A stretch of 64,000 nucleotides of DNA from an uncultured virus (IMG/VR IMGVR_UViG_3300029258_001513) (Duplodnaviria > Heunggongvirae > Uroviricota > Caudoviricetes). The translations under genes were made by a program, and so were the position numbers. Numbering within the stretch: the stretch's first letter is position 1; every line of letters starts with the position of its first letter. The notes beneath the pieces were generated by a model that saw only the letters and a program-made list of their open reading frames with translations, was not told the DNA's origin and ran no database searches. This document shows positions 135-26,173 of the stretch, one piece after another. The stretch lies in IMG/VR virus record IMGVR_UViG_3300029258_001513. The stretch is one strand, 5' to 3'.

Positions 135-359
135 GTGATTGCTCGTGGCATGAGGGTATGGGATGCTTGGCGTCATACGAGTGGCAGGGTGACGGACATC
201 GTCAAGCAGACGTATAGTGTACATCCTTTCGCTTCTCACGAGAAGTTGCAGCGGCTTGTGGGGCATGATGGGATTGGTCCGGGTGTTTACGAGTTGACGG
301 TTATCTCTCTTGTTGCTCCTGAAGGGTGTATCTGGATTGGGTGTGAAGAACAAGCGTGA
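135..359 (+). CDS. PxG-tail mini-protein
   Basis: Ends APEGCIWIGCEEQA; GAGGAG RBS upstream. Confidence 0.65.
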   Translation: MIARGMRVWDAWRHTSGRVTDIVKQTYSVHPFASHEKLQRLVGHDGIGPGVYELTVISLVAPEGCIWIGCEEQA

Positions 360-543
360 CTTGTGCCGGAATTGCGGCGAGCCGGTGGAGTTCTCGGGAT
401 TCTCGGGCATGTGGCGTCATGCCGGTCACAAGAAGGGGTATGCTTGTGACTGGCACTTTGATGGCTCCTCCTCTTTTGCGGAGCCGTGTTCGGGGGCGGT
501 GAGGGTGGAAGATGAGCGGATTGAATCAGAACGAGAAGATTGA
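343..543 (+). CDS. Cys-rich mini-protein, variant PxG tail
   Basis: CRNC..WRH..C; EPCSGAVRVEDE; start uncertain. Confidence 0.6.
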   Translation: MKNKRDLCRNCGEPVEFSGFSGMWRHAGHKKGYACDWHFDGSSSFAEPCSGAVRVEDERIESERED

Positions 544-706
544 CCGGATGGAAGGTGTCCTTGACGGTTTGGAATCGGGTGTGACGATACCATACTGCGG
601 GGTCTGTCACAAGCCGTGGATGACGTGTAAGCATGGTCTCGACATGGAGACGGTAACTGTCGTGCCTGCTGGTTGTGCGTTCGTCATGAAGGAGGAACGG
701 GTGTGA
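512..706 (+). CDS. Cys-rich PxG-tail mini-protein
   Basis: CGVC..C.H; ends VPAGCAFVMKEERV. Confidence 0.7.
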   Translation: MSGLNQNEKIDRMEGVLDGLESGVTIPYCGVCHKPWMTCKHGLDMETVTVVPAGCAFVMKEERV

Positions 707-737
707 AAAATCAACGTAAAAAAGCAGAGGAAATGAA

Positions 738-836
738 ATGAGAGACCTTGTGACAGTGGCAATCGTATCTATGGTGGGCGGGTTCTGTCTCGGAGCGTTG
801 CTGACATACATCATCGTGGAACTCGGCATATTATGA
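738..836 (+). CDS. 32-aa single-pass membrane peptide
   Basis: Hand-translated MRDLVTVAIVSMVGGFCLGALLTYIIVELGIL; GAGG upstream; below ORF-track cutoff. Confidence 0.5.
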   Translation: MRDLVTVAIVSMVGGFCLGALLTYIIVELGIL

Positions 837-876
837 CCATCTTCTCAAAGCCGATGATAAAAAGTGAAGGTTTTGC

Positions 877-1074
877 ATGAGGTATCGGGATTGCAGGACG
901 TGTGCGTGGGAGAAGGTCTGTTGGCGGTGGCAGAGCAGTAGGAAGCCGTGTGAGAGTTATGCTCCAAGGGGATGTGTAGCTGTGGAGCCGTTGCATGAAG
1001 AACGATGTGAGATACAGGTGTCGTCAGTGCGGGAGGATTCATCCGTTGGAAGTGAATCACACCAACCCCCATGA
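877..1074 (+). CDS. Cys-rich PxG-tail mini-protein
   Basis: CRTC..C..C; APRGCVAVEPLHEE. Confidence 0.6.
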   Translation: MRYRDCRTCAWEKVCWRWQSSRKPCESYAPRGCVAVEPLHEERCEIQVSSVREDSSVGSESHQPP

Positions 1075-1189
1075 CCGATGGTATCACTGCAACAACCTGA
1101 CGAATTACAGTTTGGTGCCGAAAGGAGCGGTTTTTACTGTCGATGAGCGAGAAGCGGATTATCGGGTGGAATCATTGGCCTGCGGGTGA
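995..1189 (+). CDS. Cys-rich PxG-tail mini-protein
   Basis: CRQCGRIH; VPKGAVFTVDE. Confidence 0.65.
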   Translation: MKNDVRYRCRQCGRIHPLEVNHTNPHDRWYHCNNLTNYSLVPKGAVFTVDEREADYRVESLACG

Positions 1190-1439
1190 ACTCAAGGCTT
1201 GTCCTGATTGCGGTTCGGACAAGTTCTTCGAGGGTCCGTGTGGTGGTATAGCACAGAATGTTGAGTGTGCCGGGTGCGGTCACAAGTTCAACTTGATGGG
1301 TCCGTTCGGCGTTGACCGGATTTCCCATGAGCGTCCTGACCCTGACGGCTTCGCCGTGGTGTATAATGAAGAGCGGGCTATGCCTTTGGTGGGTTCGTTC
1401 TTCAGGCGGCTGACTGAAAGGATGATGAAATCGACATGA
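1143..1439 (+). CDS. Zn-ribbon PxG-tail protein
   Basis: CPDCG..CAGCG; DPDGFAVVYNEE. Confidence 0.7.
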   Translation: MSEKRIIGWNHWPAGELKACPDCGSDKFFEGPCGGIAQNVECAGCGHKFNLMGPFGVDRISHERPDPDGFAVVYNEERAMPLVGSFFRRLTERMMKST

Positions 1440-1675
1440 AAAAAGCTGAAGAAATTGATGCTGGTTTTGATGAACTGAACAAGCGGATTGATTCGTTGTC
1501 GGCAGACATGGAACAGGGGATGGCGAAGATGGGTTTGATGTTGGAGGCGATTCGGATTTCGGTGAATTGTCTTACCGAATACTCCGAGGGTCTGATTGAT
1601 GATGGCGAGCGTGCCCGGAAAACCATGATTCGGGTCATCGACCTCCTGCGGGAAGGGTTCGTAAGCGAGCAATAA
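1436..1675 (+). CDS. hypothetical helical protein
   Basis: ATGA overlap with upstream stop; amphipathic helical composition. Confidence 0.6.
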   Translation: MKKAEEIDAGFDELNKRIDSLSADMEQGMAKMGLMLEAIRISVNCLTEYSEGLIDDGERARKTMIRVIDLLREGFVSEQ

Positions 1676-1705
1676 AAAGCAGAGTTTTGCACAAGGGGTT
1701 ATGGG

Positions 1706-2125
1706 ATGGAATCGAAGGTAGTTTGCGGGAATGCTCGTGACATATTGAGTAAGGGGCGTAGTGGTTTTGTTCATTGCGTAGTGACATCGCCTCCGTATTG
1801 GGGATTGAGGGATTATCATTCGTATCCTCAAGTGTGGGATGGTGAGGATGGGTGTGAGCATGAATGGGGTGAGCGTTTACCTGAGCATCACAAGGGGCAG
1901 GTACCGCAGACGAAGTGGAAGAAAAACGAGTCTGTATCGGATGGACAGAATGCGGGAGCCGGGCAGTTTTGCATGAAGTGTGGAGCTTGGTATGGACAAT
2001 TGGGGTTGGAGCCGACGCCTGATTGCGGTAGACCACTTATGGAAATGCGTCCTGACTTAAGCGAGAAAGACAGGGAGTATGTCTTAGGCGAATTACGCGA
2101 ACTTGGACTGATTGACGAGGCGTGA
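1706..2125 (+). CDS. beta-class N4/N6 DNA methyltransferase, N-terminal half (SPPY, likely N4-cytosine)
   Basis: CVVTSPPYWGLRDY and GQLGLEPTPDC; terminates at TGA 2123-2125. Confidence 0.9.
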   Translation: MESKVVCGNARDILSKGRSGFVHCVVTSPPYWGLRDYHSYPQVWDGEDGCEHEWGERLPEHHKGQVPQTKWKKNESVSDGQNAGAGQFCMKCGAWYGQLGLEPTPDCGRPLMEMRPDLSEKDREYVLGELRELGLIDEA

Positions 2126-2866
2126 TTTATGAGTGCAAACAGTAGAGCCGCAAGTGGGACAGCAGTATTTTTTTCGACATTCCGGGCAGTATTTTCGAGG
2201 ATTGCGAATTTTGAACTCTTTCCCGCATTTTTGACAGACCCTAGAACGACCGCTCCATTCACTCCAGACTGGTTTCTTGCCACCGTGTGCCCTTCTATGG
2301 CAATTCTGACAAAGGGTCAAGCCGTTGTCTGGATCGTAGCGTCCTTCTTCATAATCAGCGTATGCCCTTATATGGTGGACATTCAAGATGACATTCTCAC
2401 CTTCGCCATTTTTTGCCCCACATTGCTGGCATGTATAGTTATCTCGCTTCAAGACGGTATTTACGAATGTTTTATACTCTTGGGATTTGTATCTGGCTTG
2501 TCTTTCTTTGGCACAACCTCCTTTCCACATCGGGTGGTTCTCTCCGACGAGATGTGTGTTTCTAGGAGGTATATTTCCAGCCTGCTTGACGCCTTTACTT
2601 ATTGCGGCTCTATGCTCCTCGGAAAGTTCACGACCAGAGAGGGAATTGGAAATCTTCTTGCGTGTTTTATCGGACAGTTTCCTACCAAGACACCGTTTGT
2701 TGCCCATAGACGCTTGGGATATTTTCTCTCGCACGGAATCCCTTTTGGCGGGGTTGTTGATTTTGTTCCGATGCTTGGTTTTACAGGAATTCGAGCAAAA
2801 TTGAGCACCTCGACCCCTGTAGTGTTTACCACACTGTTCGCAGATTTTTTCATAATACTTAGGCAT
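2093..2866 (-). mobile_element. NUMOD3-like + HNH homing endonuclease gene inserted antisense in the MTase
   Basis: Start MPKYYEKIC at 2866; LSEEHRAAIS, GENHPMWKGG, RDNYTCQQCG..VHHI..NGLTLCQNCH; AT-richer than flanks; only credible minus-strand gene. Confidence 0.9.
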
Positions 2867-2895
2867 GATGATAAGATAGCAAAAGGAAAAGTAGG

Positions 2896-4026
2896 ATGCA
2901 ACCCCAAATGACCATTCCCGAGTATCGAATTCCATCTCATTTGCGAAAGTATTTTCGACACAAAACTTGTGGGTCGTGTTATGTATGTCATTTGGTACGG
3001 GTATTTCGTGGGGTGAAGCGGGTGCTTCGGGATGACGGGGTGTTATGGCTGAACATTGGGGATACTTATTATGGCGGCAAGGGAGCCAGCAATTATGCGT
3101 TTCAGAGGCGTCGAACGAGTTCTTCGGAGCAGAAAGAGTATCACAACATTTTAGCGGGTAAGGGCGAGATGCGACCACAGGATGCCCCTCATCCTTTTCT
3201 CAAGCCTAAAGACCTTGTGGGCATACCTTGGCGGGTATCGTTTGCATTGCAGGCTGATGGCTGGTATCTCAGGAATGCCGTGGTGTGGCATAAACCGAAC
3301 ACGATGCCTCAAAGTGTGAAGGACCGCTTGACGTGTTCTTACGAGCACATTTTTCTGCTGACCAAATCGAAGAAATACTTTTTCGATGCCGAGGCAATCA
3401 TGGAGGATGCCCTTACGAACGTTCCTTGCAAGACATGGAAGGAGAAGGCGTATAACCAGTCGATGTTGAATAAAAAACAACGTCATGGGGTCAAGGGAAG
3501 ACCCTCTGGTGTTGCAGGATACTCTATTCGAGGGAAAAAGAACAAGCGTGATGTATGGACAATCCCCACCAAGCCGGGCCAGTGGGATTTCTGCTACAAC
3601 TGCAAAACAGTCTACGAGGGAAAACAGAGAAGAAAAATCATCAAAAAGGGCAAGCTGAAGGTTTGTCCTGAGTGTGGTTGTATGGACAAGTGGGTTGACC
3701 ATTTCGCCATGTTCCCGCCTGATTTAGTTGAGCCGTGCATATTGGCTGGTACATCGGAGAAGGGGTGTTGTCCGCAATGTGGGGCACCGTGGAGACGGGT
3801 GGTACAGAAGGGTGAGTCTGATTCGGAGCAGAAGTGGGAGCCGTCGTGTTCTTGTGGCGATTCCCTTGACCCCATCCCCTGTACCGTCCTCGACCTCTTC
3901 TGCGGCTCAGCAAATACAGGCGTCGTCGCCACAAAACTCGGAAGAATTTTCATCGGAATTGACATCAAGGATGAGTATGCTTGTCTTTCGAGGGCGAGGT
4001 TGGAGAACATGGGGGCTATGGGATGA
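2896..4026 (+). CDS. beta-class DNA methyltransferase, C-terminal half
   Basis: RVLRDDGVLWLNIGDTY, KPKDLVGIPWRVSFALQADGWYLR, HFAMFPPDLVEPCILAG, VLDLFCGSANTG (SAM-binding). Confidence 0.92.
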   Translation: MQPQMTIPEYRIPSHLRKYFRHKTCGSCYVCHLVRVFRGVKRVLRDDGVLWLNIGDTYYGGKGASNYAFQRRRTSSSEQKEYHNILAGKGEMRPQDAPHPFLKPKDLVGIPWRVSFALQADGWYLRNAVVWHKPNTMPQSVKDRLTCSYEHIFLLTKSKKYFFDAEAIMEDALTNVPCKTWKEKAYNQSMLNKKQRHGVKGRPSGVAGYSIRGKKNKRDVWTIPTKPGQWDFCYNCKTVYEGKQRRKIIKKGKLKVCPECGCMDKWVDHFAMFPPDLVEPCILAGTSEKGCCPQCGAPWRRVVQKGESDSEQKWEPSCSCGDSLDPIPCTVLDLFCGSANTGVVATKLGRIFIGIDIKDEYACLSRARLENMGAMG

Positions 4027-4652
4027 GTGTTCTCGGGGTTTGTCATGGTGGTCCGTTGTTCTGTACGTGGGGGCGTATTGATTTCGGGGGCAGTTTGGGC
4101 AAGTGGGTGATTGCCCGCAAGAGTGATGGTGCGGTGGTATCGCAATTTGTGATGGGCCGGGGTGACATTCTGATTTTCAAGACGCCCCTGAAGGCTGCCC
4201 GGTTCCTTGAAGGGCACGAAAAATGGGTTGGGGAAGGTAAGGCAAAGGCGTTGAGGGGCAAGCCGTGCCTGCTTCGGCTTCACAACGTCCATTACAGCGA
4301 CCACACGCCCCGTGAGGGGGCTTCGAGGCATCGGCTCGGGCAAGGACAAGGGGCGAGGCACTGGCGTTATGTGGGGCGATTCAGGGGGCTTGAGTGTTTC
4401 GACTGGTTTCCGCCGAAAGAGTGGGAGGGAACGACGTACAAATGGTTCGAGTACAACTGGGCGAGGGCTCCGTGGGTCCGTTGGGAGGTTGAAGAACGTG
4501 AATTTGATGAAATGGACCGCATCGAGGGTCGGTTGTGGCATTACGGGAACCGGGAAAACCTGAATCCGACGGCACGAAAGCGGGTTTCCGAGATGGAGAA
4601 ACGTCTGGACGTGTTGCGACGGCGGCGTGAGCAAAGGAAGAAGGGAAAATGA
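4023..4652 (+). CDS. hypothetical protein
   Basis: ATGA-coupled at both ends; 209 aa. Confidence 0.6.
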   Translation: MSVLGVCHGGPLFCTWGRIDFGGSLGKWVIARKSDGAVVSQFVMGRGDILIFKTPLKAARFLEGHEKWVGEGKAKALRGKPCLLRLHNVHYSDHTPREGASRHRLGQGQGARHWRYVGRFRGLECFDWFPPKEWEGTTYKWFEYNWARAPWVRWEVEEREFDEMDRIEGRLWHYGNRENLNPTARKRVSEMEKRLDVLRRRREQRKKGK

Positions 4653-4831
4653 AGCCGGGGCGATGCGAGTTTTGTCGTGGAAGGGGCTGGGTGCGTGATG
4701 ATGTGAATGAAATACGCGGGACCATGCTCAGAAAACCATGCGAGTTTTGTCGTGGCCGGGGATACATTATACCGGAGGGGGTAGTTTTCGTCAGGGATGA
4801 GTGCAGGACCGGTGACATATTGGTGTCGTAA
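4649..4831 (+). CDS. PxG-tail mini-protein with DnaJ-like CxxCxGxG repeats
   Basis: CEFCRGRG twice; IPEGVVFVRDE. Confidence 0.7.
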   Translation: MKPGRCEFCRGRGWVRDDVNEIRGTMLRKPCEFCRGRGYIIPEGVVFVRDECRTGDILVS

Positions 4832-4970
4832 TTGCGGAAGGCGAGTGTTGTTGCCGGTGAATGACGAGTCTCTGGTTTGCCAGTGTCATGTGAAGGTCGC
4901 CGAGTGGAAAACGAATGTGGCCAGTCCGCCAGAAGGCGTGGTTTTTATCAGAGATGAAGTACGGGTGTGA
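4797..4970 (+). CDS. Cys-rich PxG-tail mini-protein (57 aa, not in ORF track)
   Basis: Hand-translated MSAGPVTYWCRNCG..CQC..PPEGVVFIRDEVRV. Confidence 0.7.
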   Translation: MSAGPVTYWCRNCGRRVLLPVNDESLVCQCHVKVAEWKTNVASPPEGVVFIRDEVRV

Positions 4971-5188
4971 AGATAAGCAGGTTGTATCCGGGTACGGTTG
5001 AGTATGTGACTCGGCGGTGCCAGTCGTGTGGGTATGCTGGTCCACCTGTCACGGAGGAAGAGGATGACTACAAGAACAAGTGTCCGGTCTGCAATCAGGT
5101 GATGTGGTCGTGCTTCGTGGACTGTCCAAGGGGCAAGGTGGTGGTGGCGGGCGAGGAGAAGCTCGGGAAGGGTTCAGGGGGCGTGTAA
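4967..5188 (+). CDS. Zn-ribbon PxG-tail mini-protein
   Basis: CQSCG..CPVC; CPRGKVVVAGEE. Confidence 0.7.
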   Translation: MKISRLYPGTVEYVTRRCQSCGYAGPPVTEEEDDYKNKCPVCNQVMWSCFVDCPRGKVVVAGEEKLGKGSGGV

Positions 5189-5261
5189 GAGGCATTATAT
5201 TTCCGGTTATGAGCCAGATAGGCGTATAAGAGGCACTATATTTCCGTTTATGAGCCAGATA
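5180..5261 (+). repeat. tandem 41-bp direct repeat, 2 copies
   Basis: 5180-5220 vs 5221-5261, 38/41 identical. Confidence 0.9.
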
Positions 5262-5597
5262 AGTGACAAGAGTACCATGCGTTGCCGGTCGTGCGGACGA
5301 GGTATGCGGGGTTGTGCCTGTCTCAACAAGAATGTCGTCCGTGTACCAAAGGGCGTGATTTTTTCTGTCGATGGGCATGACGTGACTCCTGCCGCATTTG
5401 AGAAGCGATGCGGCATCTGTGGCAAACTCTGTGAGAAAAAACGCACGGAACGTATCATCCCTCGATGTGATTGTGGGCCTGCGACGGCGAGCACGCAGCG
5501 TGGTCGTGAGGTGAGCAAGGCGGAATGGGTTCGGGCACAGGTGAGGGTGCCTGCCGGGTCTGTGCATGTGATTGAGGAGGCGGTTGATGGGGCCTGA
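5250..5597 (+). CDS. two fused Cys-rich PxG modules
   Basis: VPKGVIFSVD and VPAGSVHVIEE, each after CxxC..CxC. Confidence 0.7.
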   Translation: MSQISDKSTMRCRSCGRGMRGCACLNKNVVRVPKGVIFSVDGHDVTPAAFEKRCGICGKLCEKKRTERIIPRCDCGPATASTQRGREVSKAEWVRAQVRVPAGSVHVIEEAVDGA

Positions 5598-5802
5598 TGA
5601 TTATTGGATGGAGATTGTTGCCCATGCGGCGTGTGGTTGGATACGGTTCACGTGGGTCAAGGAAGGTCATCGTGCTTTGTTCCCGGACGAGGAAATCTGT
5701 CCGGTTTGTAGGGAGAGGGCTGAGCGTCAGTCGTGTGTTGACGGCTTGAGTTTTACTCCGGCTCCGGGCTGTGTGGCAGTTTTCTACGAGGAGCGGGTGT
5801 GA
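5587..5802 (+). CDS. PxG-tail mini-protein
   Basis: HAACG..CPVC; PAPGCVAVFYEERV. Confidence 0.65.
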   Translation: MGPDDYWMEIVAHAACGWIRFTWVKEGHRALFPDEEICPVCRERAERQSCVDGLSFTPAPGCVAVFYEERV

Positions 5803-6020
5803 ATGTCTGGCGTAGATGGCATTGTCGCAGGTGTGGATTCTGGGATGATGCCGAGGCTCCGTTTGTTCCGAGTGGCACGATGAAATCGCTTCTCATGGAG
5901 ATGCAGGGAGCTTCAAAAACCGACAATACTCGGTGCCGGAAATGTGGCGGGACGAGTTGTGCTGCTTTCTTTGTTCATCCGGTTGGTTGTGTTGTTGTGG
6001 ATGAGGAACGGACTGCATGA
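5799..6020 (+). CDS. Zn-ribbon PxG-tail mini-protein (paralog of 6238)
   Basis: WRRWHCRRCGFW..RCRKCG..HPVGCVVVDEE. Confidence 0.75.
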   Translation: MNVWRRWHCRRCGFWDDAEAPFVPSGTMKSLLMEMQGASKTDNTRCRKCGGTSCAAFFVHPVGCVVVDEERTA

Positions 6021-6241
6021 AGTCTCTGGGTGGTGATTGGGTGTGGGTTGTCTGGCGTTGCCTTGAGTGCGACTACATCAATACCGAGACGTATCCACCT
6101 CATCATGTGGAGATGTATGTACGCAAGTTGGCGAAGCCAATTATGGGAGATTGTTACGAGTGTGGCAATCGTAGTTGGACTGTGGAAACGCAAGGCTCGC
6201 CGGAGGGGATACCTGCCACTTGGGACGAGGAACCAGCGTGA
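6017..6241 (+). CDS. Zn-ribbon PxG-tail mini-protein
   Basis: CLEC..CYECG; SPEGIPATWDEE. Confidence 0.7.
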   Translation: MKSLGGDWVWVVWRCLECDYINTETYPPHHVEMYVRKLAKPIMGDCYECGNRSWTVETQGSPEGIPATWDEEPA

Positions 6242-6669
6242 AGTGGTGGCGTAGATGGCATTGTCGTTCATGCGGTTTCTGGAACAACAACGAAATGCCG
6301 ATTCAGAAGGGAAGCCTGTGGACTGCCGTGGTGAGTGACATGCACCAAATCCAGAAAACGACAATGACCCGCTGCCAGAAATGCGGCGAGAAAAACTCTC
6401 GCTTTATCATTCATCCGGTTGGGTGTGTGGTTGTTGACGAGGAAGAACTCGAAAGGTTTTTCTGGTCTGCTGTCAGACATCATGGTGATGATAATATGAC
6501 GGACACGGAGATTGTCTGGGTCTGTGGAAAGTGTGGAGCACCTACTGTTGGCGAAAAGTGGACTTGTCAGGCGTGTGGTGCTGGGGCTGGAGGGGCAACA
6601 GAGGGTGCCGCTTTCCGTTCGCCAAGGGGTATAGTTGTCGTGACGGAGGAAGAAGGGGCAGGAGCATGA
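6238..6669 (+). CDS. two fused Zn-ribbon PxG modules
   Basis: HPVGCVVVDEEE and SPRGIVVVTEEE; GTGA overlap start. Confidence 0.75.
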   Translation: MKWWRRWHCRSCGFWNNNEMPIQKGSLWTAVVSDMHQIQKTTMTRCQKCGEKNSRFIIHPVGCVVVDEEELERFFWSAVRHHGDDNMTDTEIVWVCGKCGAPTVGEKWTCQACGAGAGGATEGAAFRSPRGIVVVTEEEGAGA

Positions 6670-6854
6670 AGTTGGAAAAACAGAAGTCGTTGTTTGACCG
6701 TTACCGTTGCAAGCGGTGCGGAGCTTTGAGTTTTGTGAATACCCACACTGCGAATGCCATCCGTGGATGTTTTCATCACTGGCAGATATGCTGGATATTC
6801 TTGGGACCGGTTCCCTTGGGTTCAGTTTTCGCTTGGCATGAAGAAGCCGTCTGA
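6666..6854 (+). CDS. PxG-tail mini-protein
   Basis: CKRCG; VPLGSVFAWHEE. Confidence 0.65.
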   Translation: MKLEKQKSLFDRYRCKRCGALSFVNTHTANAIRGCFHHWQICWIFLGPVPLGSVFAWHEEAV

Positions 6855-7056
6855 AAAACGCTGTGGGTTTTGTGGTCTCATTGTTGTACCCATGACGGGT
6901 ATGACAATAGACGACCTTTTTGACCCACGGTGTGAATGTCGGGAGGCTCTCAGGATGGATGGAGAAATCTTGCAGAACGCCCAGACGGACTGTCCGGTGG
7001 GTTCGGTTATGGTGGTCGATGAAAAACAGTGTGGATATTGCGGGTCGGGTTCGTAG
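6838..7056 (+). CDS. PxG-tail mini-protein
   Basis: RCGFCG..CEC; CPVGSVMVVDE. Confidence 0.65.
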   Translation: MKKPSEKRCGFCGLIVVPMTGMTIDDLFDPRCECREALRMDGEILQNAQTDCPVGSVMVVDEKQCGYCGSGS

Positions 7057-7231
7057 TTATTGTAGGAATTGCGGTCGGCTGATTGCGAACTCGGCATTTG
7101 GGTGGTCTCATTTCGGCGGTCATTTTCGCTGTGCCGTGGTTGACCTTCCTCTTGATTCCCTTCTTGATACCAAGCACGCCGAGCCGATTCCTTCGGGTGT
7201 GGTTTTCATTCATCAGGAGCACGAGATATGA
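7031..7231 (+). CDS. PxG-tail mini-protein
   Basis: CRNCG..WSH..C; IPSGVVFIHQE. Confidence 0.65.
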   Translation: MDIAGRVRSYCRNCGRLIANSAFGWSHFGGHFRCAVVDLPLDSLLDTKHAEPIPSGVVFIHQEHEI

Positions 7232-7440
7232 GGCGTCGTGCTGTGAGGCTTCGGTGTCGGCATTGTGCCAAGTTGATTTTGGGCTCGTCGATTCTTGGCA
7301 GTTGTCGGTGTGTCAATGCCGACTTCACTGTTTTGCCGTCTCCGGGAGAATCTTCTCGAACAGCTTGCCCGGAGGGTATAATCATGGTGGTGAAAGAGGA
7401 ACGAGGTGATGTGGGCGAGCGAGACGCCGAGGGATTGTGA
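7228..7440 (+). CDS. PxG-tail mini-protein
   Basis: CRHC..CRC; CPEGIIMVVKEE. Confidence 0.65.
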   Translation: MRRRAVRLRCRHCAKLILGSSILGSCRCVNADFTVLPSPGESSRTACPEGIIMVVKEERGDVGERDAEGL

Positions 7441-18034: not shown

Positions 18035-18195
18035 AGGCTTGACTGTTTGGGAACCAAAATCATTGTAAGGTATTGTTACGGTGTAGTTTATGAAAGAAAC
18101 CTCTTGTCTTTGTTTCCGTGTTTGATAGACTTCATTTGAATCTGCGTTTTAACTGCTGGTCGGTCTGGCAGGGCGTGGAGTAAAGGAGAAGCAGC

Positions 18196-19433: not shown

Positions 19434-19446
19434 TTGATTTGTACTG

Positions 19447-20181
19447 ATGAGTTCTGATTCCATTCAGCCCGACCTAGATGAACTGGTTCGTATTCTCGAA
19501 CAGCCTGACAAGTATTGCTTTGCTGGGTACTACGAGGGGGACGGGACAGCTTCCAATCCGTCTTTGTTGTACTTCCGGGATACGACCGTCAAGGGTGCGT
19601 GCGTAATGACGGTCAAACTTCCTCCTTTGCTTACACAGTGCGTCATCCTTTCCGCGATGAGCATTGTCGGTGGGATGTTGAAAGACTTGTCTATCCCTAC
19701 TGCTCTCAAGATAGGGAAATTCAGGAACCGTCCATCGGTGCCGGAGAAGAAGCCTTGTTGGTGGCCCAGTTGTACCGACTTCTTTCTTTCGTGGGAGATG
19801 TTGCTGGAAAGAGGACGGACGGATTATTCTGTTTCGTTCTGGCGGGATTTACCTTGGCACGACATCGACGATGGTGAGATTCGGAAGTACACCGGAGCTT
19901 CTATGACTACCGTTCAGACGTGGAGGAGACGGTTCGATGGTGTTGATGGTGAGAGACCGAAAAAGGGCACTCCGGCTTTTTGGAAGAGGGTGGACTGGAA
20001 AGGCATCCCCTCGAATGCTCAAGTGGCTGAGATATACGGCGTGAAAGAAAATGACGTTGCCCGCTGGAGGGGCAAGCTCGCTCCTGATACCGGAAGGGGA
20101 GATTACCTGTCGGGCGGGAATGGTAACGGGCGGAAGAAGTCCGGTAGCCGAAAATCTGGCAAGCGTACTGTCGCTGCGTGA
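19447..20181 (+). CDS. putative DNA-binding protein with two HTH-like repeats
   Basis: FW..W..EI..G.S..TV..WR repeated as FW..W..QVAEIYGV..VARWR; basic tail. Confidence 0.6.
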   Translation: MSSDSIQPDLDELVRILEQPDKYCFAGYYEGDGTASNPSLLYFRDTTVKGACVMTVKLPPLLTQCVILSAMSIVGGMLKDLSIPTALKIGKFRNRPSVPEKKPCWWPSCTDFFLSWEMLLERGRTDYSVSFWRDLPWHDIDDGEIRKYTGASMTTVQTWRRRFDGVDGERPKKGTPAFWKRVDWKGIPSNAQVAEIYGVKENDVARWRGKLAPDTGRGDYLSGGNGNGRKKSGSRKSGKRTVAA

Positions 20182-20192
20182 TTCTCCTGAGA

Positions 20193-20202
20193 GGTGTATA
20201 AT
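20193..20202 (+). promoter_or_regulatory. GGTGTATAAT -10-like element (class 2)
   Basis: Intergenic, upstream of RBS and ATG 20218; recurs at 21106, 29450, 48712. Confidence 0.55.
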
Positions 20203-20217
20203 CCCTCTGGAGGAAGA

Positions 20218-20508
20218 ATGTCTTGGCATCTTGCAACACTTACCGGACGGATTCGGAAGACTACTTGGCTTTGGCATGGCGAGTGGACGAAAGCTATCAG
20301 GGGTCTAAGCCCGGAAGCTCGTCTCTGTTCTCAAGCTCCTGTGGAATGCACTCGGTGCGGGCATACGTGGGTTCGACAAGAGGTTGACGGGCTGTATTCC
20401 CCTCCCAACGTGTGCCGCTGCGGTTGCTCGAATGTCAGAATAGGCGGCGTGACACACACCTTTATTCCACGCCATTGTGCCGTTGTGTACGGCGAGGAGA
20501 CGGCGTGA
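20218..20508 (+). CDS. Zn-ribbon protein, variant tail
   Basis: CTRCG..CRCG; IPRHCAVVYGEE; GGAGG RBS. Confidence 0.65.
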   Translation: MSWHLATLTGRIRKTTWLWHGEWTKAIRGLSPEARLCSQAPVECTRCGHTWVRQEVDGLYSPPNVCRCGCSNVRIGGVTHTFIPRHCAVVYGEETA

Positions 20509-20723
20509 GCCTTGCCCGGTGGTATCAGGTAACCCGGCAGCATTGTCGCAGATGTGGTGAGGTTGCGTGGCTTGTCGAGAGGCAACTTGTCGGGGGAGAC
20601 CCACGGGTTATGCCGTGTGGGGGTGGAGTTTCACAAGCATTCCCATGGAACCGAAACCGAGGTTGTCGTTCCCCCGTCCTTACTTTGCGGAGAGGTCTTT
20701 GTCTGGGATGAAAGGCGGGACGA

Positions 20724-20942
20724 GTGAAAGTCACATGGCACTGCCGTAAATGTGGAGCCTACTTCAAGGGAACATGGATGATCGAGCGGTGTGACTGCGG
20801 CAATAGGAACTTCTTGTCTGCTGTGGACATGAAGGGTAAGAGGATGTATTCCAGAGATGTTATTGTCCCGGCGAGGCAGGGGTATGTCTACGACGAACAA
20901 GAACTATGTGGCTTACGAGCCGGAGATGATACCGGCGTGTAG
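20724..20942 (+). CDS. Zn-ribbon mini-protein, variant tail
   Basis: CRKCG..CDCG; VPARQGYVYDE. Confidence 0.6.
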   Translation: MKVTWHCRKCGAYFKGTWMIERCDCGNRNFLSAVDMKGKRMYSRDVIVPARQGYVYDEQELCGLRAGDDTGV

Positions 20943-21114
20943 TCACTGCTGGTATCGGGGAGAGCCGCAAGAAGCCAATCTGGAGAACTCCAACGGGGTT
21001 ATCGTTTCTGTTCTTCGGTGGTGCCCGGAGTGCGGCAAGGGGTGGTCTCCCGCGATGTGTCCGGTTGGTTCTGTCGCAATTTGTCCGGTCACGGAGTCGG
21101 TGGTGGGTGTATAA
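20884..21114 (+). CDS. Zn-ribbon PxG-tail mini-protein
   Basis: CSHC..CPECG; CPVGSVAIC. Confidence 0.6.
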   Translation: MSTTNKNYVAYEPEMIPACSHCWYRGEPQEANLENSNGVIVSVLRWCPECGKGWSPAMCPVGSVAICPVTESVVGV

Positions 21115-21118
21115 TCAT

Positions 21119-21146
21119 TCAGAATTCAGGTATCGTTGTGCAATGA
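21119..21146 (+). promoter_or_regulatory. TCAGAAT-N12-GTGCAATG motif, copy 1
   Basis: Exact spacing; intergenic, upstream of 21156. Confidence 0.75.
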
Positions 21147-21155
21147 GGGGGTTGA

Positions 21156-21590
21156 GTGGCAGGTTACGAGTACAGGTCTGAGGCATCTATCGTGAACTCT
21201 GACAGGGAAATCCGGGCAACGGATATTCCAAACGGCGTTGTGGTTCGGGGTCCGGGCGGGAAACCCATCCTCGTGGATTACGACGACGATGGCAAGATGG
21301 TCAACTCCGGCACGGAGGTTGAAATCGGGGACTGGCTGTCGGGCATCGGCAAAAGCATACCCGAGGACATGGTGATTCTTGTCCATTCCGTCAAGGGCGA
21401 CGGGCAGATGCTTCTCAAGAGCCTTGAGGTGAATCGTATTCTGAGGAACGGCAAGAAGATGAGCGTGGCTCAGGCGGCGAAGGAGGGTGTGCTCCCGAAG
21501 TTCGTGGAAACTCTGCGTGAGAAGTTCGTGAAAACTCTGGAGAAGAAAGGTTCAAAATGCGTAAGTACAGCAGACAGCACGGCTGGATGA
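21156..21590 (+). CDS. hypothetical protein
   Basis: Follows promoter motif; 144 aa. Confidence 0.7.
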   Translation: MAGYEYRSEASIVNSDREIRATDIPNGVVVRGPGGKPILVDYDDDGKMVNSGTEVEIGDWLSGIGKSIPEDMVILVHSVKGDGQMLLKSLEVNRILRNGKKMSVAQAAKEGVLPKFVETLREKFVKTLEKKGSKCVSTADSTAG

Positions 21591-22093
21591 TTCTTCACAG
21601 CTATGCTTCTGGTGACGGCTCAATTCACTTTACGTGGATTTCGGAGAATGACCCACAGGGACCGGCTCTCAGCGAGTACGTTACCGAGAGTGACGTGAGT
21701 GAGTATCTGCGGGAGGACGAAGAGTCCGGGGCTCACAGGTGGAAGGGTTGGGAAATCTTCGTCATGTGGCCCGGTCGCACTCGCTTCCCCGAGATACGAC
21801 TGGTCGAGCCCGCCTTTCGTCCTTTTCACACATTCAAGCGTCTCGTCTTTCGGGGAGGGGGATACGAGTATTCCTCGATGAAGGGTGATGGCGACGACTA
21901 CAGGTTGTGCAACACGACCTTCTGGGCTCTCGATGAGTTTGGAAAGCACGAGGTCCATAACGGCGACATCAGGCTTGCCCTGTGCTTCTATCTGAACCAC
22001 GAGGAGGATTTTGCCAAGCAGGGTTTTACCGTGAGGGAGCGTCGTGCCGGATGTAGTTCACGAGCCGTACATGGTGTGGGAGTGCCCGCATAA
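21557..22093 (+). CDS. hypothetical protein
   Basis: 178-aa ORF in operon. Confidence 0.65.
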   Translation: MRKYSRQHGWMILHSYASGDGSIHFTWISENDPQGPALSEYVTESDVSEYLREDEESGAHRWKGWEIFVMWPGRTRFPEIRLVEPAFRPFHTFKRLVFRGGGYEYSSMKGDGDDYRLCNTTFWALDEFGKHEVHNGDIRLALCFYLNHEEDFAKQGFTVRERRAGCSSRAVHGVGVPA

Positions 22094-22325
22094 GAAGGTG
22101 CTGACTCGGACGGGGTGGGGTTTGAATCTTCCGCCGGAGTGCCGTTTATGCACGCACGAGGAGATGGATTATGTCGGGGCGGTGCCGAGGGGATGTGTGT
22201 ATGTCTGGTGGGAATGTTCAGTGCCATCGCCCGGACTTGCCGTGGCATCCGGTGCCGGACAAGTACACGGTCGGGGTGGACATGGGCACGGGGAAGGACG
22301 TAACGAAGTTGGTGTTGCGGGATGA
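22044..22325 (+). CDS. PxG-tail protein
   Basis: CPH..CRLC; VPRGCVYVWWE. Confidence 0.55.
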   Translation: MPDVVHEPYMVWECPHKKVLTRTGWGLNLPPECRLCTHEEMDYVGAVPRGCVYVWWECSVPSPGLAVASGAGQVHGRGGHGHGEGRNEVGVAG

Positions 22326-22458
22326 GCACGGAGACCTTTACTTCATGCAGCCACCACCCGAAGGTGTCGTTCTCGTCTTCAGCGAGCAAACAGCCGGTTC
22401 CCAACTGGGAAACCATGAGAAAGCTCGCGGAGCGTGCGAGGTTGGATGCGGCGTATGA
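22171..22458 (+). CDS. PxG-tail protein (start uncertain)
   Basis: PPEGVVLVFSE. Confidence 0.5.
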   Translation: MSGRCRGDVCMSGGNVQCHRPDLPWHPVPDKYTVGVDMGTGKDVTKLVLRDEHGDLYFMQPPPEGVVLVFSEQTAGSQLGNHEKARGACEVGCGV

Positions 22459-22621
22459 TGCGGACAAGAGCATTATTCGGGGTCTTTTGGGGTCCGCGAA
22501 TTGGACGAGTGCGGATATCGAGCAGTGGGAAAAGAAAGCAGATGAAGAGCATTGGATACGGACGAGAGTCCTCATGGACTGCCCGAAAGGTTCTGTGGGC
22601 GTATGGCTAGAGGAGGAAGTT
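22322..22621 (+). CDS. PxG-tail module running in frame, without stop, into the LpxR-like gene
   Basis: CPKGSVGVWLEEE; its EEE codons supply AGGAGG (22611-22616). Confidence 0.5.
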
Positions 22622-23548
22622 GTGGATAAGAGACTTGTGACGGTTCCTGTTATATTGTTGTTTCTGGCGTCGAATGTTGCGGCGTCCGGCATCATTCTTC
22701 GCGAGGAAAACGATTTCTTCACGGGCTCTGATGACTATTACACGCAGGGGTTGGAATTGCTTGGTGTGGGTCATGTCGTCAGGAGAAAAGACCATCTCTA
22801 TTTGCGTTCATACGGCGTGCGTAATCTCATGTACACCCCGAGCGATATCCGTATTGCCGAGGACCAGCCGGAGGAACGTCCTTGGGCTGGGCTGACCGCC
22901 GCTCTGGTCGAGGAGTGGTATTACCGGAAAAAGCAATCGTTGCGTGTCGAGTGGATGGCGGGTGTTCTTGGAGAGTGGTCTCAATCTGATGAAATCCAGA
23001 CTTGGTTCCACGACCTGATAGGGGACAATCTGCCGATGGGGTGGGACAACCAGATACCCAACGAGCCGTTCGTCAACGTGGCTGTTGAATACTACCGACC
23101 TCTGTATGTTGTCGGTAGCCAGTGGCAGTTTGACGTGACGGGGCAATGGGGAGGCAGCTTGGGTACGGCATTCGTCAATATGGGTGGCGGTCTGTTGCTA
23201 CGGGGTGGCTGGCAGGTGCCGTCGGATTACAACCTCGGTCTTATCACGCCGACCGTGGCGAAAGCAAATGAGCTTTCAGCTTACCTGTTCCTTGAGAACA
23301 AGGCACGCTTTGTGGCTCACAATGCAACATTGGGCGGCAGCTTGTTTCAGGATGGTCCGAGCCGGGAACTCGAACCACTGGTCGGGGACGTAAGGGGAGG
23401 CTTTTCCCTTGGTCTCAACAGGGTCTTGGGCTCGTCGTATGATTTCCGTCTGGTGTATTCAGGCGTAGTCCGCTCGAAAGAGTTTGAGGGTCAGAAAGAA
23501 GTCGTCGATTACGGTTCTATCCTGCTTTATGTGATGGGAGGATTTTGA
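22622..23548 (+). CDS. lpxR: LpxR / DUF2219 family outer-membrane lipid A 3-O-deacylase-like beta-barrel
   Basis: Signal peptide then ENDFF..DDYYTQG, MYTPSDI, RPWAG, GWDNQIPNE, C-terminal F. Confidence 0.8.
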   Translation: MDKRLVTVPVILLFLASNVAASGIILREENDFFTGSDDYYTQGLELLGVGHVVRRKDHLYLRSYGVRNLMYTPSDIRIAEDQPEERPWAGLTAALVEEWYYRKKQSLRVEWMAGVLGEWSQSDEIQTWFHDLIGDNLPMGWDNQIPNEPFVNVAVEYYRPLYVVGSQWQFDVTGQWGGSLGTAFVNMGGGLLLRGGWQVPSDYNLGLITPTVAKANELSAYLFLENKARFVAHNATLGGSLFQDGPSRELEPLVGDVRGGFSLGLNRVLGSSYDFRLVYSGVVRSKEFEGQKEVVDYGSILLYVMGGF

Positions 23549-23549
23549 C

Positions 23550-23852
23550 ATGAAAGACAAGGTGGCGTTCATTATCAATGAGATGGATGACGGTCAGTAT
23601 GCCGTTCAGGTCACGGATGATGTTGGCAAGGCGGTTGTCAGCTTCCGCAACTTGCACGGCAGAGCGAATGACCCGCCCACGCGAGTCACGCTGATAACGA
23701 TGAACTACAAGGACAAGGAGTTTCTTATACGGGCGAAGAACTTGCCAGTGCAGGATGTATCGAAGGATGAGTTGCCTGACGGGGTCGTTCTTGGGAAAGG
23801 CCCTATCTGGCTGGACAAGGAGGAAGACGATGCCAGCGACACTGATAGTTGA
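23550..23852 (+). CDS. hypothetical protein
   Basis: GGAGG RBS; 100 aa. Confidence 0.7.
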   Translation: MKDKVAFIINEMDDGQYAVQVTDDVGKAVVSFRNLHGRANDPPTRVTLITMNYKDKEFLIRAKNLPVQDVSKDELPDGVVLGKGPIWLDKEEDDASDTDS

Positions 23853-24057
23853 AGTATCTGCGGAAGACCATGACCGGGTAGCAAAGCGAATCGAAATGCT
23901 TGAGGGCGTTGATTCGGTTGGTGAAGTCGAAGAGGGTCAGCATGAATACAAGGGGTGGGCTGACTTGCACGTTCGCTGTGGTTGCGGAACCAGCCGGTTC
24001 GATGTAGAGGAACTCCTGCGGGGCGTGAGCGGAGTGGAGGTCCGTGTGGTGAAATAA
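23830..24057 (+). CDS. small hypothetical protein (ACT/ferredoxin-like pattern)
   Basis: GGAGGA RBS; two EGV/SGV helix-strand turns. Confidence 0.55.
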   Translation: MPATLIVEVSAEDHDRVAKRIEMLEGVDSVGEVEEGQHEYKGWADLHVRCGCGTSRFDVEELLRGVSGVEVRVVK

Positions 24058-24083
24058 GGGGGGGTCTGAGCCAAGAGGTTATC

Positions 24084-25127
24084 GTGAACAAGACTGTCTA
24101 TCTTCCGTATAAGACCGTCCGGGAATCCACCCGGAAGATTGTTGCTCGTCAGTATCCCAAGAAGGAGCGGAAGAAAAGGCGGGACACGATTTTGAAGGAT
24201 GCTATAAGGAAAGTCCTTCTGTTTCCGGGTATGTTACAGACCATGGAGGCGAATATCCTGATGGACGAGGAGGCTTACGTCGAGCGTGGTTGCCGTATGT
24301 ACTTTCCCGAGTCCGCTGCCCTTTTGGAGATGTTGTGGGGGGGGGCGAGGATGGACTTGGATTTGGCAGACCTTGACATGGATAGGATTCCTCCGGTTTT
24401 CAGTGTCGCGTGGCCGAAGTGTGAGATAGACGGGGCACAGATGCGTGGATGCCTTGTGGTGATAATGACGGGGAACCAGTATAACGAGCTTTGTTCCCGT
24501 TTCGGTCGCCGCTACTTGGGAAGTGACATAGCGAGGGTGAAGCTGGTGGACCGAATCCCCGATGACATTCTCGGGCTGCATCTCACCTACTGGCAGCCCC
24601 AAGAGAAAGGCGACCCCATGCTTGTACGCTGCTGTGTCCCGGATACCGGCATCAAGGAGTGTTTCTCGTCGGAGTCCGGCTATCGTGAATTCATGGAGTC
24701 ATTCGGAAACTTGAGGTTGTTGGGGGCAGTTGGCTTAGACGAACAGGAGACTCATCAGAACTACGTCATGTCGAAGCTCGTCTTGCGTCTCATGGTCTAC
24801 ATGCAAGCCTGTCCCGAGCATGTTCATTATGGGTTGCCCGATGGGCATAAAGACCGGGACTTCAAATCGCCCTATGAGGAAATCACGACTTGCCGAGTGG
24901 GTGTTCCGGCGGGGTTGGTTGGGACGTACGCTTCTCCGTCGGTACACTGGAGGACATGGCATTTCAGAAGCTATCCGGTACGGAAGAACGGGACAAAGAG
25001 GAAGGGTGCCGTATTCGTAAAGGGTACAGTCGTGAACGCGGACGTAGACCCGCAAACGGTGGAAGATGAAACTACGAGCAAGAGAACTGAAACATTTGCA
25101 CAAGGTGTTGTCCACGGACATCGCTGA
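24084..25127 (+). CDS. phage hypothetical protein
   Basis: 347 aa; C-terminal SPSVHWRTWHFR motif. Confidence 0.75.
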   Translation: MNKTVYLPYKTVRESTRKIVARQYPKKERKKRRDTILKDAIRKVLLFPGMLQTMEANILMDEEAYVERGCRMYFPESAALLEMLWGGARMDLDLADLDMDRIPPVFSVAWPKCEIDGAQMRGCLVVIMTGNQYNELCSRFGRRYLGSDIARVKLVDRIPDDILGLHLTYWQPQEKGDPMLVRCCVPDTGIKECFSSESGYREFMESFGNLRLLGAVGLDEQETHQNYVMSKLVLRLMVYMQACPEHVHYGLPDGHKDRDFKSPYEEITTCRVGVPAGLVGTYASPSVHWRTWHFRSYPVRKNGTKRKGAVFVKGTVVNADVDPQTVEDETTSKRTETFAQGVVHGHR

Positions 25128-25260
25128 GTGTACGAGTCTGCTTGAGGGAGACATCCCGGAAGGGCAGGTTTTGAGGGTGGCGGAACGGATGGAGGAAGAC
25201 CGCCGCATGATGGAAATGATTGACAATGAGTTCCTCGCACACCCGGAATGGAGGAGATGA
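25066..25260 (+). CDS. small helical hypothetical protein
   Basis: ATGA coupling to next gene. Confidence 0.55.
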   Translation: MKLRARELKHLHKVLSTDIAECTSLLEGDIPEGQVLRVAERMEEDRRMMEMIDNEFLAHPEWRR

Positions 25261-25652
25261 GGGTTATCATCGCAGGACCACGTGACTATGAAGACTATGT
25301 GTCACTCCTTGTTGCGGTACGTTTGGCTGCGTTCGATATTTCCGAAGTCGTATCGGGACATGCACGCGGCGTTGACACTCTTGGAGAGCGGTGGTCCCGT
25401 GAAGTCCTTGGTAGGGAGCCCAAGCTGTTCCCGGCGGATTGGAACAAGTACGGCAAGGGAGCCGGGCCTAAGCGGAACCTGCAAATGGCGAAGTATGCAG
25501 AGGGTGCCATTATCCTGTGGGATGGAATCAGTCGCGGGACTGGCAGCATGTGGAAGATAGCCAAGGCGAATGGTCTGGAGTGGTTCGTGTATGGTGTCAG
25601 AGGATACAAGCCGGGAAAAGGCAGAAGGTCTCTTCGAGGCTCTGGTTCTTGA
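25257..25652 (+). CDS. SLOG superfamily (YspA/DUF2493-like) protein
   Basis: VIIAGPRDY, VVSGHARGVDTLGE, FPADWNKYGKGAGPKRNLQMA, WDGISRGT. Confidence 0.88.
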   Translation: MRVIIAGPRDYEDYVSLLVAVRLAAFDISEVVSGHARGVDTLGERWSREVLGREPKLFPADWNKYGKGAGPKRNLQMAKYAEGAIILWDGISRGTGSMWKIAKANGLEWFVYGVRGYKPGKGRRSLRGSGS

Positions 25653-25923
25653 CCGGGTTCTTTCTGAACGTGAGGTTCAGGAGGCTATGAATGGACCGGC
25701 TCCGAAGCTGTCGGAAGAAGAAGAGGCGATACTGGACAGGATAGGCTCCGAGCTTCCGAATCGGATTGGCGAATGGCGTGCAGCCGAGCAAGGGTGTATA
25801 GTCCCGAGGGACGAGGAAACGATTGGAGTGTTATGCGTGTCCGACTGGCACATAGGAAACGTCATGGGTCCGCATTGTCCGAGGGGTTGCGTGGTGGTGG
25901 AAGATGAGAGACCCGTTGATTGA
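25570..25923 (+). CDS. PxG-tail protein
   Basis: QGCIVPRDEE and CPRGCVVVEDE. Confidence 0.6.
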   Translation: MVWSGSCMVSEDTSREKAEGLFEALVLDRVLSEREVQEAMNGPAPKLSEEEEAILDRIGSELPNRIGEWRAAEQGCIVPRDEETIGVLCVSDWHIGNVMGPHCPRGCVVVEDERPVD

Positions 25924-26173
25924 TTTCCCGATGATGATTCTTCAGGCGTGCGAGCCTCCGGTGCCGAAAGGGAGCGTCATGGGTCTCAGGGTCATCAAGT
26001 CCAGAGAGTGCAAGCCCGGACAGGCGTTAGTGGCCAACAGGAACGGCAACGTCTACAATTTAGATTTCGGGCCGCCGTTGGGCTGTGTGGAAGTAACAGA
26101 GGAACAGGAGGTTGGGTACGGAAGGCAGCGGATATTCTCGGTGTTTCAGAATCCTGACCCTTGTGTGCAATGA
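25904..26173 (+). CDS. PxG-tail protein, last of the array
   Basis: VPKGSVM and PPLGCVEVTEE. Confidence 0.6.
   Translation: MRDPLIDFPMMILQACEPPVPKGSVMGLRVIKSRECKPGQALVANRNGNVYNLDFGPPLGCVEVTEEQEVGYGRQRIFSVFQNPDPCVQ
26146..26173 (+). promoter_or_regulatory. TCAGAAT-N12-GTGCAATG motif, copy 2
   Basis: Exact spacing. Confidence 0.75.

Follow-up and report, generated by a model that had tools for sequence, protein, structure and literature searches.

Cargo-loading peptides of encapsulins are terminal and bind the inner face of the HK97-fold shell encoded beside them. A different short peptide is found in bacteriophage T4, whose internal proteins IPI-III carry a capsid-targeting sequence (CTS), an N-terminal propeptide of 10-19 residues that is removed from proteins which are basic in their mature form (PMC9026906). 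The head proteases of T4, phiKZ and 201phi2-1 cleave behind a Glu, and a T4 CTS with Asp in its place is not processed (PMC9026906). The scaffold mimics of satellites, SaPI CpmB and Rcm, are the nearest precedent for the copying of a head-protein motif (PMC12409344), and Tai systems block tail assembly, with no mimicry stated in the available part of their description (PMC11364771). Here, we describe a computational analysis of a 64,000-nucleotide stretch of DNA from an uncultured virus (IMG/VR IMGVR_UViG_3300029258_001513), hereafter the window, whose first 26 kb contain an array of small genes encoding proteins that share a ten-residue peptide, the tag. We present evidence that the tag is a protein-level label which resembles a strand of a phage-G-type major capsid protein, and that several of the proteins bearing it also contain other pieces of that capsid protein.

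The tag is a peptide of fixed length, P-x-G-x-[VIA]-x-[VIP]-x-x-E, in which Glu lies exactly nine residues after Pro. An iterated weight matrix converges on 56 copies in 47 small open reading frames (ORFs), nine of which contain two copies, and residue shuffles within reading frames yield 0.34 copies (maximum 2 in 200 shuffles). Leave-one-out scores reach at least 12 bits in 46 of the 56 copies and at least 9 bits in 53, and the matrix finds no copy on the whole minus strand or on the plus strand from 26.4 to 64 kb. A strict pattern likewise has 33 matches on the plus strand of positions 1-26200 and none on the minus strand, against an expectation of 0.36 +/- 0.62 (maximum 3) from 200 dinucleotide shuffles; four further plus-strand matches beyond 26.2 kb all lie within long proteins. 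Roughly five weaker copies fall below the cut-off (343, the second half of 9742, 14119, 20884 and 15130), and the copy at 20186 is doubtful, as it overlaps an upstream gene and a -10-like box with a ribosome site. A first-pass annotation, made by eye, had counted about 50 copies on about 45 mini-proteins and at least eight two-module ORFs, and had expected the motif to exceed a composition-matched shuffle and not to be equally common in non-coding frames, all of which the present counts bear out. Its description of the motif, P-x-G-(hydrophobic 4-5)-x-E(E), is correct in the core; the length does not vary, and a second Glu is present in only 28 of the 56 copies.

Across the 56 copies the counts of the conserved residues are P 48, G 49, [VIA] 54, [VIP] 51 and E 54, and Asp never occurs at the Glu site. 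When two marginal sites (20683 and 26350) are added to give a 58-site set, codon positions 1-2 of Pro, Gly, Val, Val and Glu hold 0.5-1.9 bits and the four wobble positions 0.06-0.10 bits, and Glu is encoded by GAG 31 times and by GAA 25 times. Since the wobble positions are free and Glu is kept in nearly every copy and never replaced by Asp, selection acts on the protein, as the first-pass annotation had argued. No Pfam or PHROG family, libraries that comprise described families only, covers the tag; sub-threshold zinc-ribbon matches fall on the Cys parts of the proteins. The DNA repeats of the window reflect the codons of the motif or a small number of duplicated modules, and a likeness of the tag to Walker B was dropped, the Asp being kept in only a third of copies.

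The tag follows bodies that are mostly unrelated to each other, only nine pairs matching at E <= 0.01 and a few of these being clear duplicates. A Cys pair is present in 45 of the 58 modules and absent from 13, and the distance between Cys and tag ranges from 0 to 52 residues. What follows the tag is equally variable. From 3 to 311 residues lie behind the Glu, with five or fewer in 21 of 56 copies, and the tag, first described as terminal, is thus terminal only in a minority. The tails include short stop-start-coupled ends, read-through that overlaps the next gene, a second module and, in one case, a whole LpxR gene. At 27 of the 58 sites the next start lies 20-52 nucleotides after the Pro codon, and in five of them the Asp-Glu codons hold the next ATG; translational coupling and ribosome-site effects account for the common three-residue tail and for the second Glu. 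Where no start has been called in the neighbourhood, however, the first Glu is still present at 30 of 31 sites, and of 27 coupled control genes only 2 encode Glu four residues before the stop. The tag is therefore neither a ribosome-binding-site artefact nor, given the variable distance from Cys, the integral strand of one zinc ribbon. The tag is a label that is selected as protein, has a fixed length and a near-invariant Glu, stands behind unrelated bodies and ignores what follows the Glu.

Profiles of the capsid protein were built from five capsids and 120 fragments as stand-ins of the phage-G-type (HK97-fold) major capsid protein, a family (phrog_2522) represented by phage G gp27, whose structure has been solved (PDB 6WKK), Myrna gp99, E3 gp79 and Tunturi_5 gp334. 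The tag profile aligns with capsid residues 226-241 (hhalign E 3.4e-4, probability 38%), and the capsid consensus at this site has Val, Pro, Gly, Val, Val and Glu at tag positions -1, 0, 2, 4, 6 and 9, which are the commonest residues of the tag. A tag model trained on the window alone ranks the capsid site first of 419, fourth of 1268 and second of 623 long frames in three phage contigs, rankings that are not independent tests because they concern one conserved site. In 283 kb around 80 capsid genes, all eight matches of at least 15 bits are the capsid strand site, which is also the best tag-model site in four of five named capsids. Six of 47 capsids have Asp at the position equivalent to the Glu, and the tag is the stricter of the two. 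Additionally, of 100 gene families common to distant relatives, only the capsid family matched strongly.

The resemblance extends beyond the ten residues in several proteins. In the foreign proteins P0003 and P0007, which come from other metagenome contigs, the sequence continues from a tag into capsid 229-273 without a shift of register (E 6e-6, and E 0.03 by tblastn to LR745208). The nine residues upstream of the tag at 14082 match, in register, the capsid columns that precede the tag-like site, with a score reached by 2.5e-4 of 20,379 control positions, or about 0.014 for all 58 tags together. In a modest-quality predicted model of the capsid (mean predicted local distance difference test score, pLDDT, 53, and about 70-75 at the site), the site forms a turn and a strand, and part 141-290 of this model matches HK97-fold shells at a Z of about 10; by the usual HK97 topology the strand would belong to the capsid A-domain. 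The capsid has another Pro-x-Gly site, the first along its sequence, near residue 54. Of 57 tags, 14 align best there and 26 at the strand, and in ORF 8346 and foreign protein P0006 the tag occupies the place of this first site. These comparisons of sequence suggest that the tag quite probably derives from, or mimics, the capsid strand.

When the bodies, freed of their tags, are compared to the capsid profile, 6 of 57 score at least 30.7, against 2 of 322 real control windows (Fisher P 2e-4, the cut-off having been chosen post hoc). Two of the six are firm, with no shuffle of 2000 scoring as well, and four are weak (2-13 of 2000). The regions of the fold that they represent differ, and in four of the six the likeness reaches right up to the residue that precedes the tag. 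The firm piece within ORF 14472 is 65% identical over 29 amino acids to LR745208 and matches phrog_2522 at E 0.0011 and the capsid hidden Markov model at E 1.4e-9, and tblastn matches of this ORF fall in the annotated capsid genes of phage G, Myrna, Phabba, E3 and Tunturi_5. The second firm piece, in ORF 14695, has a profile alignment score of 39.4. ORFs 8346 and 13947, which the first-pass annotation had singled out as bodies without a zinc ribbon, indeed have no Cys pairs, and it had missed that both are among the capsid-like pieces. A lead concerns the last tagged ORF, 25904: of its four Atlas matches with a named family, three are shell proteins (P2 capsid, SrpI-like and SU10_MCP) and one is YonB (scores 0.89-0.90, 90-105 shared features), and the capsid profile gives it no support (515 of 2000 shuffles). 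Homology to the phage-G-type capsid is thus firm for the bodies at tags 14622 and 15013 and for foreign P0003, P0006 and P0007, moderate for the tag, and weak for four bodies. Two guesses made by eye, a terminase piece at 22171 and a phosphoesterase piece at 25786-25879, received no support (best E 0.14).

Outside the window, searches extend the range of the tag only slightly. The tag profile finds six proteins at E <= 0.001 among 1.84 billion representative proteins, three of this phage and three foreign, and this number is a floor because single-tag proteins fall below the reach of the search. The foreign proteins contain two or three tag stretches each, on contigs of 1.4-3.2 kb, and two of them also contain capsid pieces; P0006 begins with capsid 4-43 (E 2e-7). 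The module at 12486, which is fused to further tagged modules in its foreign homologues (Table 1), records fission or fusion between phages. Seven phage contigs that encode this type of capsid (2.36 Mb in all, with 140 of 227 kb in the case of G007) and 35 kb of Tunturi_5 have no array but 37 scattered matches at 12 bits, six of which are the capsid site; the tagged array is a lineage-specific system. Other searches returned little: viral contigs searched yielded no relatives of five window proteins or of P0003, P0005 and P0006, and one degenerate DNA tag pattern gave a single isolated match in viral contigs; a metagenome scan found only two near-identical copies of the window DNA; a genome-contig search produced two chance matches, by our own reading a LysR regulator and a citrate-lyase-like protein; a word-based protein search found only 8570 itself and nothing for 14472; and profile A1 matched one of 42 records, twice and in the Cys part only, in a search with no positive control.

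Stand-alone capsid pieces are encoded by distant phages. Tunturi_5 gp172 (L096 17431-17724, XOB77615.1) and two pieces in contig G006 (near 37.8 kb and 215 kb) lie behind twin-arginine-like leaders. Contig G003 has pieces near 219 kb, 242 kb, 486 kb, 494 kb and 546 kb, three of them beside DnaJ-like Cys knuckles, and eight double-knuckle frames in all. These pieces lack the tag and occur with other add-ons. Since Tunturi_5 is cultured and copies the same capsid segment (85-113) as ORF 14472, it offers a testable model for capsid-piece genes. Finally, P0107, a protein of 158 amino acids on a 43.6-kb contig, covers capsid residues of about 161-247 and ends shortly after a tag-like version of the strand; it is possibly an intermediate between a capsid piece and a free tag.

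The constant peptide has the look of an address and the diverse bodies that of payloads, and the expected reader of a capsid-derived address is some factor that deals with capsid protein. The match of the tag to a capsid strand, together with the capsid pieces among the bodies, makes export a less likely role and directs attention to the head or to factors able to recognize capsid. We therefore consider, with a probability of roughly 0.4, that the tag is a capsid-derived address label read by the head-assembly machinery and possibly cut after Glu, one that works like the T4 CTS without being one. If the derivation from capsid is granted, the chance that the phage's own head-assembly machinery reads the tag is about even. 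The array would then constitute a library of small, fast-changing payload modules, mostly Cys-pair knuckles with some major-capsid-protein pieces among them, and the ten-residue label at the end of every module would be a copy of a conserved capsid turn and beta-strand. Candidate readers are unassembled capsid protein or the procapsid, with which the label might pair as an extra strand, a capsid chaperone, and the prohead protease. The label would bring payloads to, and probably into, the assembling head, where a Glu-specific cut after the invariant Glu could trim arbitrary tails and divide chains of two or three modules so that all the resulting units end alike; the payloads may act in assembly, or may reach the next host as T4 internal proteins do. 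Both the arbitrary tail and a Glu that is stricter than in capsids fit such a cut, as at a protease P1 site. The first-pass annotation had proposed a docking or sorting strand shared by small effectors, and its list of options, which included virion loading and cleavage after Glu, contains the reading that we favor from sequence; its portable, strand-like peptide on diverse bodies stands, and what it overlooked was the match to the capsid.

Several observations weigh against this reading. With a longer alignment against five diverse capsids, hhalign gives only E 0.024 and a probability of 2%, and the probability in the other comparison is no more than 38%. The Tunturi_5 capsid has no Pro at the site, the tags are divided between the two capsid registers given above, and Pro-x-Gly followed by a strand is a common element. 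Judged by the fold, the strand is probably buried in the capsid, and the way in which a free copy would dock is not obvious. Four of the six capsid pieces are individually weak in a set of 57 tests, one of them in a doubtful frame, and 51 of the 57 bodies have no likeness to capsid. The phage's own capsid, scaffold and protease genes lie outside the window (Pfam and PHROG scans of the window proteins find no shell gene), and the capsid used is consequently a stand-in from distant phages with few shared genes and mostly 22-31% identity. The absence of the array from seven contigs with the same capsid type implies that it is not needed to build such a head. Furthermore, the tagged proteins (K+R 12.5% and D+E 12.8% in ORFs under 200 amino acids) are not basic, unlike T4 internal proteins. 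Complex prediction with the stand-in capsid and the tag alignment scored 0.00, which is evidence neither way, and a single-sequence fold of P0007 (pLDDT 35) and the Atlas model of 8570 were uninformative.

Mimicry of capsid need not serve the phage's own head. The modules could be decoys for host factors that recognize capsid protein, such as immune sensors, chaperones and proteases, or poisons that insert into the capsid protein of competitors, and this we regard as rather unlikely. It would suit the tiling of different capsid parts by the pieces (36-51, 54-63, 84-115, 124-138, 186-202 and 222-231, and in foreign proteins 4-43 and 229-273), the stand-alone untagged pieces kept by distant phages (G003, G006 and Tunturi_5 gp172) and the location of the array among methylase, glycosyltransferase and other accessory genes. 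The immune proteins Avs7, Avs8 and Avs10 bind the capsid A-domain (10.64898/2026.01.04.697583), and Avs8 binds diverse HK97 folds (PMC12236752). Avs7, however, recognizes capsid through a large shape-complementary surface rather than short contacts (10.64898/2026.01.04.697583), which makes ten residues a poor bait, and a decoy requires neither dozens of unrelated zinc knuckles nor a Glu stricter than that of the capsid.

The tag might instead have been born from a capsid-gene fragment and have since acquired a reader unrelated to capsid, of phage or host origin, with the bodies choosing the targets. The AAA/VWA pair of the window would be one example of such a reader, and a protease or ligase that acts on the Glu another. 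The design of a body plus a constant tag on 47 ORFs, most of whose bodies are not capsid-like, agrees with such an adaptor library, and the window encodes both an AAA_5 ATPase and a CobT-type VWA protein. Other phages put other add-ons, twin-arginine-like leaders and DnaJ-like knuckles, on their capsid pieces, from which it follows that tag and capsid piece are separable. We nevertheless hold a hub apart from capsid to be unlikely, as it leaves unexplained why the tag keeps exactly the conserved columns of the capsid. Self-association, in which tags stack as strands of a shared sheet or fibre to form a payload co-polymer or condensate, would use the alternating hydrophobic pattern and the two or three copies per chain, but has no need of an invariant Glu, and known amyloid motifs do not resemble a strand with a Pro and with acidic residues following it; it appears very unlikely. 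That the acidic end merely reflects the next gene's ribosome-binding site in a G-skewed region (G/T skew) or the last strand of a zinc ribbon is scarcely credible and is refuted as a whole explanation, despite the nearby starts and frequent Cys pairs, by the Glu retained where no start is near, the coupled controls, GAA being as common as GAG, the shuffles, the modules lacking a Cys pair, the variable Cys-to-tag distance and the lack of a Pfam family over the tag, coupling accounting for the second Glu and the three-residue tail.

The features of the array are collected in Table 1. The array extends to the right end at 26173 that the first-pass annotation gave, beyond which stands a strong terminator-like hairpin, and its left end, placed at 135, runs off the window edge: the copy at 97 sits in an ORF that starts before base 1. 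At 995, 1143, 4797, 7019, 14306 and 25904 the ATG of the next gene lies within the acidic codons of a tag in another frame, and overlaps of 20-80 nucleotides are read twice. Two tandem 41-nucleotide copies, 93% identical, lie between two tagged genes at 5180-5261. Three two-module ORFs (6238, 8570 at its junction, and 14695 for the most part) are covered by contigs of four other runs, which have neither insertions nor deletions there; the stretches listed for these contigs do not include the LpxR junction. Promoter-like sites in the window are not above chance.

Table 1. Features of the tagged array and of the window, with capsid numbering from the phage-G-type stand-ins
Feature	Position	Strand	Remarks
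Accessory gene array	1..26173	+	47 tagged ORFs (median 77 amino acids by own start calls) among about 30 untagged genes
Tagged ORFs, first block	97..1439	+	Tag Pro codons 97, 318, 665, 964, 1118, 1341; each tag 30 nucleotides
Tagged ORFs, densest block	4649..11198	+	Translationally coupled; tags 4772, 4929, 5126, 5346, 5550, 5761, 5979, 6200, 6415, 6622, 6813, 6994, 7190, 7369, 7514, 7706, 8288, 8532, 8723, 8852, 9013, 9168, 9342, 9877, 10947, 11142
Tagged ORFs, third block	12486..18034	+	Tags 12687, 13728, 13898, 14082, 14453, 14622, 14890, 15013, 15661, 15868, 16382, 16581, 16760, 17667, 17981
Tagged ORFs, last block	20051..26173	+	Tags 20186 (doubtful), 20467, 20868, 22185, 22357, 22583, 25786, 25879, 26075
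Intrinsic-terminator-like hairpin closing the array	26306..26345	+	11 pairs, 8 G-C, T run; consensus match only
Capsid piece, weak	8484..8561	+	Capsid 36-51; tag 8532; ORF 8346-8573; 12/2000 shuffles
Zinc-ribbon module	12486..12728	+	Ends after tag here; homologue in foreign P0003/P0007 runs on into two more tagged capsid-piece modules
Capsid pieces, weak	13947..14147	+	Capsid 54-63 near start and nine residues before tag 14082; 13/2000 shuffles
Capsid piece, firm	14526..14651	+	32 residues, about capsid 84-115, joined directly to tag 14622; ORF 14472-14693; 0/2000 shuffles
Capsid piece, firm	14959..15042	+	Long-helix end, capsid about 124-138, four residues before tag 15013; second module of ORF 14695-15240; 0/2000 shuffles
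Capsid piece, doubtful	20135..20215	+	Capsid 247-260 and tag 20186; frame overlaps gene 19447-20181; 3/2000 shuffles
Capsid piece, weak	20811..20897	+	Capsid 186-202, abuts tag 20868; 2/2000 shuffles
Tagged module fused in frame, no stop, to signal peptide and LpxR-family outer-membrane protein	22415..23548	+	Tag 22583; PF09982 E 1.6e-61
Last tagged ORF	25904..26173	+	Lead only: possible piece of another HK97-fold shell protein
CobT-type VWA protein	35079		
AAA_5 ATPase	39043		

The window is part of a large tailed phage, and all but one of its well-scoring genes lie on the plus strand. Recorded contigs that encode the proteins of the window measure up to 190,415 bases, and its DNA is present in sediment and seawater metagenome runs, with no RNA dataset among the listed runs that carry it. 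It also encodes an NAD ligase, an amidase, methylases and a tRNA, and the LpxR and amidase genes suggest a Gram-negative host. A glycosyltransferase cluster with a sulfotransferase and a radical SAM/SPASM gene (55817-62787), LpxR (22415), a C-type lectin (40995) and two secreted-looking proteins (18196 and 18636) suggest surface or glycan modification in such a host. An N6/N4 DNA methylase gene (1706-4026) is divided into two parts by an HNH/NUMOD3 endonuclease gene on the opposite strand (2129-2911), and an ATPase gene (49281-51855) with a LAGLIDADG intein-like insert is in two parts in different frames that overlap near 50803-50846. The single match of an Rfam scan of the window was one tRNA; the tRNA at 63879-63952 has anticodon CUA and is called tRNA-Pyl by ARAGORN. 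The gene frame at 34721-35032 plausibly runs 59 codons beyond a TAG at codon 45, and amber read-through is possible there; TAG still terminates other genes, and general recoding was dropped as TAG is the stop of 15 of 130 well-scoring genes.

What is new is that the tag can be traced to a defined strand of a capsid family. When phage mini-proteins have a tag in common, its reader can seldom be guessed, and a capsid origin narrows the hub to a short list of capsid protein, procapsid, chaperone, prohead protease and capsid-sensing defence proteins. Cargo loading, if true, would make the tag a second, independently invented capsid-targeting signal, usable C-terminally or in mid-chain, and decoy action, if true, a new counter to capsid-sensing immunity. 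In both cases, the array illustrates how hypothetical genes that fill about 26 kb of a large phage can belong together as a single system that arose from recycled pieces of the capsid gene. In its broadest form, we tentatively picture, at somewhat less than even odds, that one beta-strand of the phage's own HK97-fold capsid was turned into a portable peptide on about 50 diversified modules, several with further capsid pieces, which docks by strand mimicry on capsid protein or its recognisers. Such a system of capsid-mimic addresses and decoys in polyprotein-like chains would have no described counterpart; a literature search, which most subscription papers and bioRxiv supplements lay beyond, found no description of tagged capsid pieces or of this system.

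Among described systems, the T4 CTS resembles the tag in being about ten residues long, in ending in a Glu that Asp cannot replace and in being portable onto foreign bodies; it is also common to small divergent proteins that are dispensable in T4 and encoded in a variable region (PMC9026906). The rule of Glu and not Asp is observed in the sequence of the tag. The T4 CTS, however, is N-terminal and found on a few basic proteins per phage, whereas the tag follows its body (none is N-terminal by our own start calls), occurs up to three times per chain, is carried by as many as 47 ORFs whose products are neutral and rich in Cys, and has its match in the capsid protein itself, in one of its strands. 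The capsid pieces are of the phage G type, not the gp23 type. The phage-G-type major capsid protein (phrog_2522) is the probable source of both the tag and the pieces. Its full-length fold has about 280-335 residues; the pieces in the array measure 10-45 residues, represent various regions of that fold and are encoded by separate small genes, and none could build a shell. The last strand of a zinc ribbon would hold a constant position and always accompany Cys pairs, which the tag does not. Finally, the tagged modules have in common with SaPI CpmB and Rcm a small size and a short motif that resembles part of a protein of head assembly, a copy by which those mimics reach the assembling capsid; CpmB and Rcm copy the scaffold, are helical and are encoded by single genes of satellites (PMC12409344), whereas here a part of the capsid appears to be copied, in dozens of genes of a large phage.

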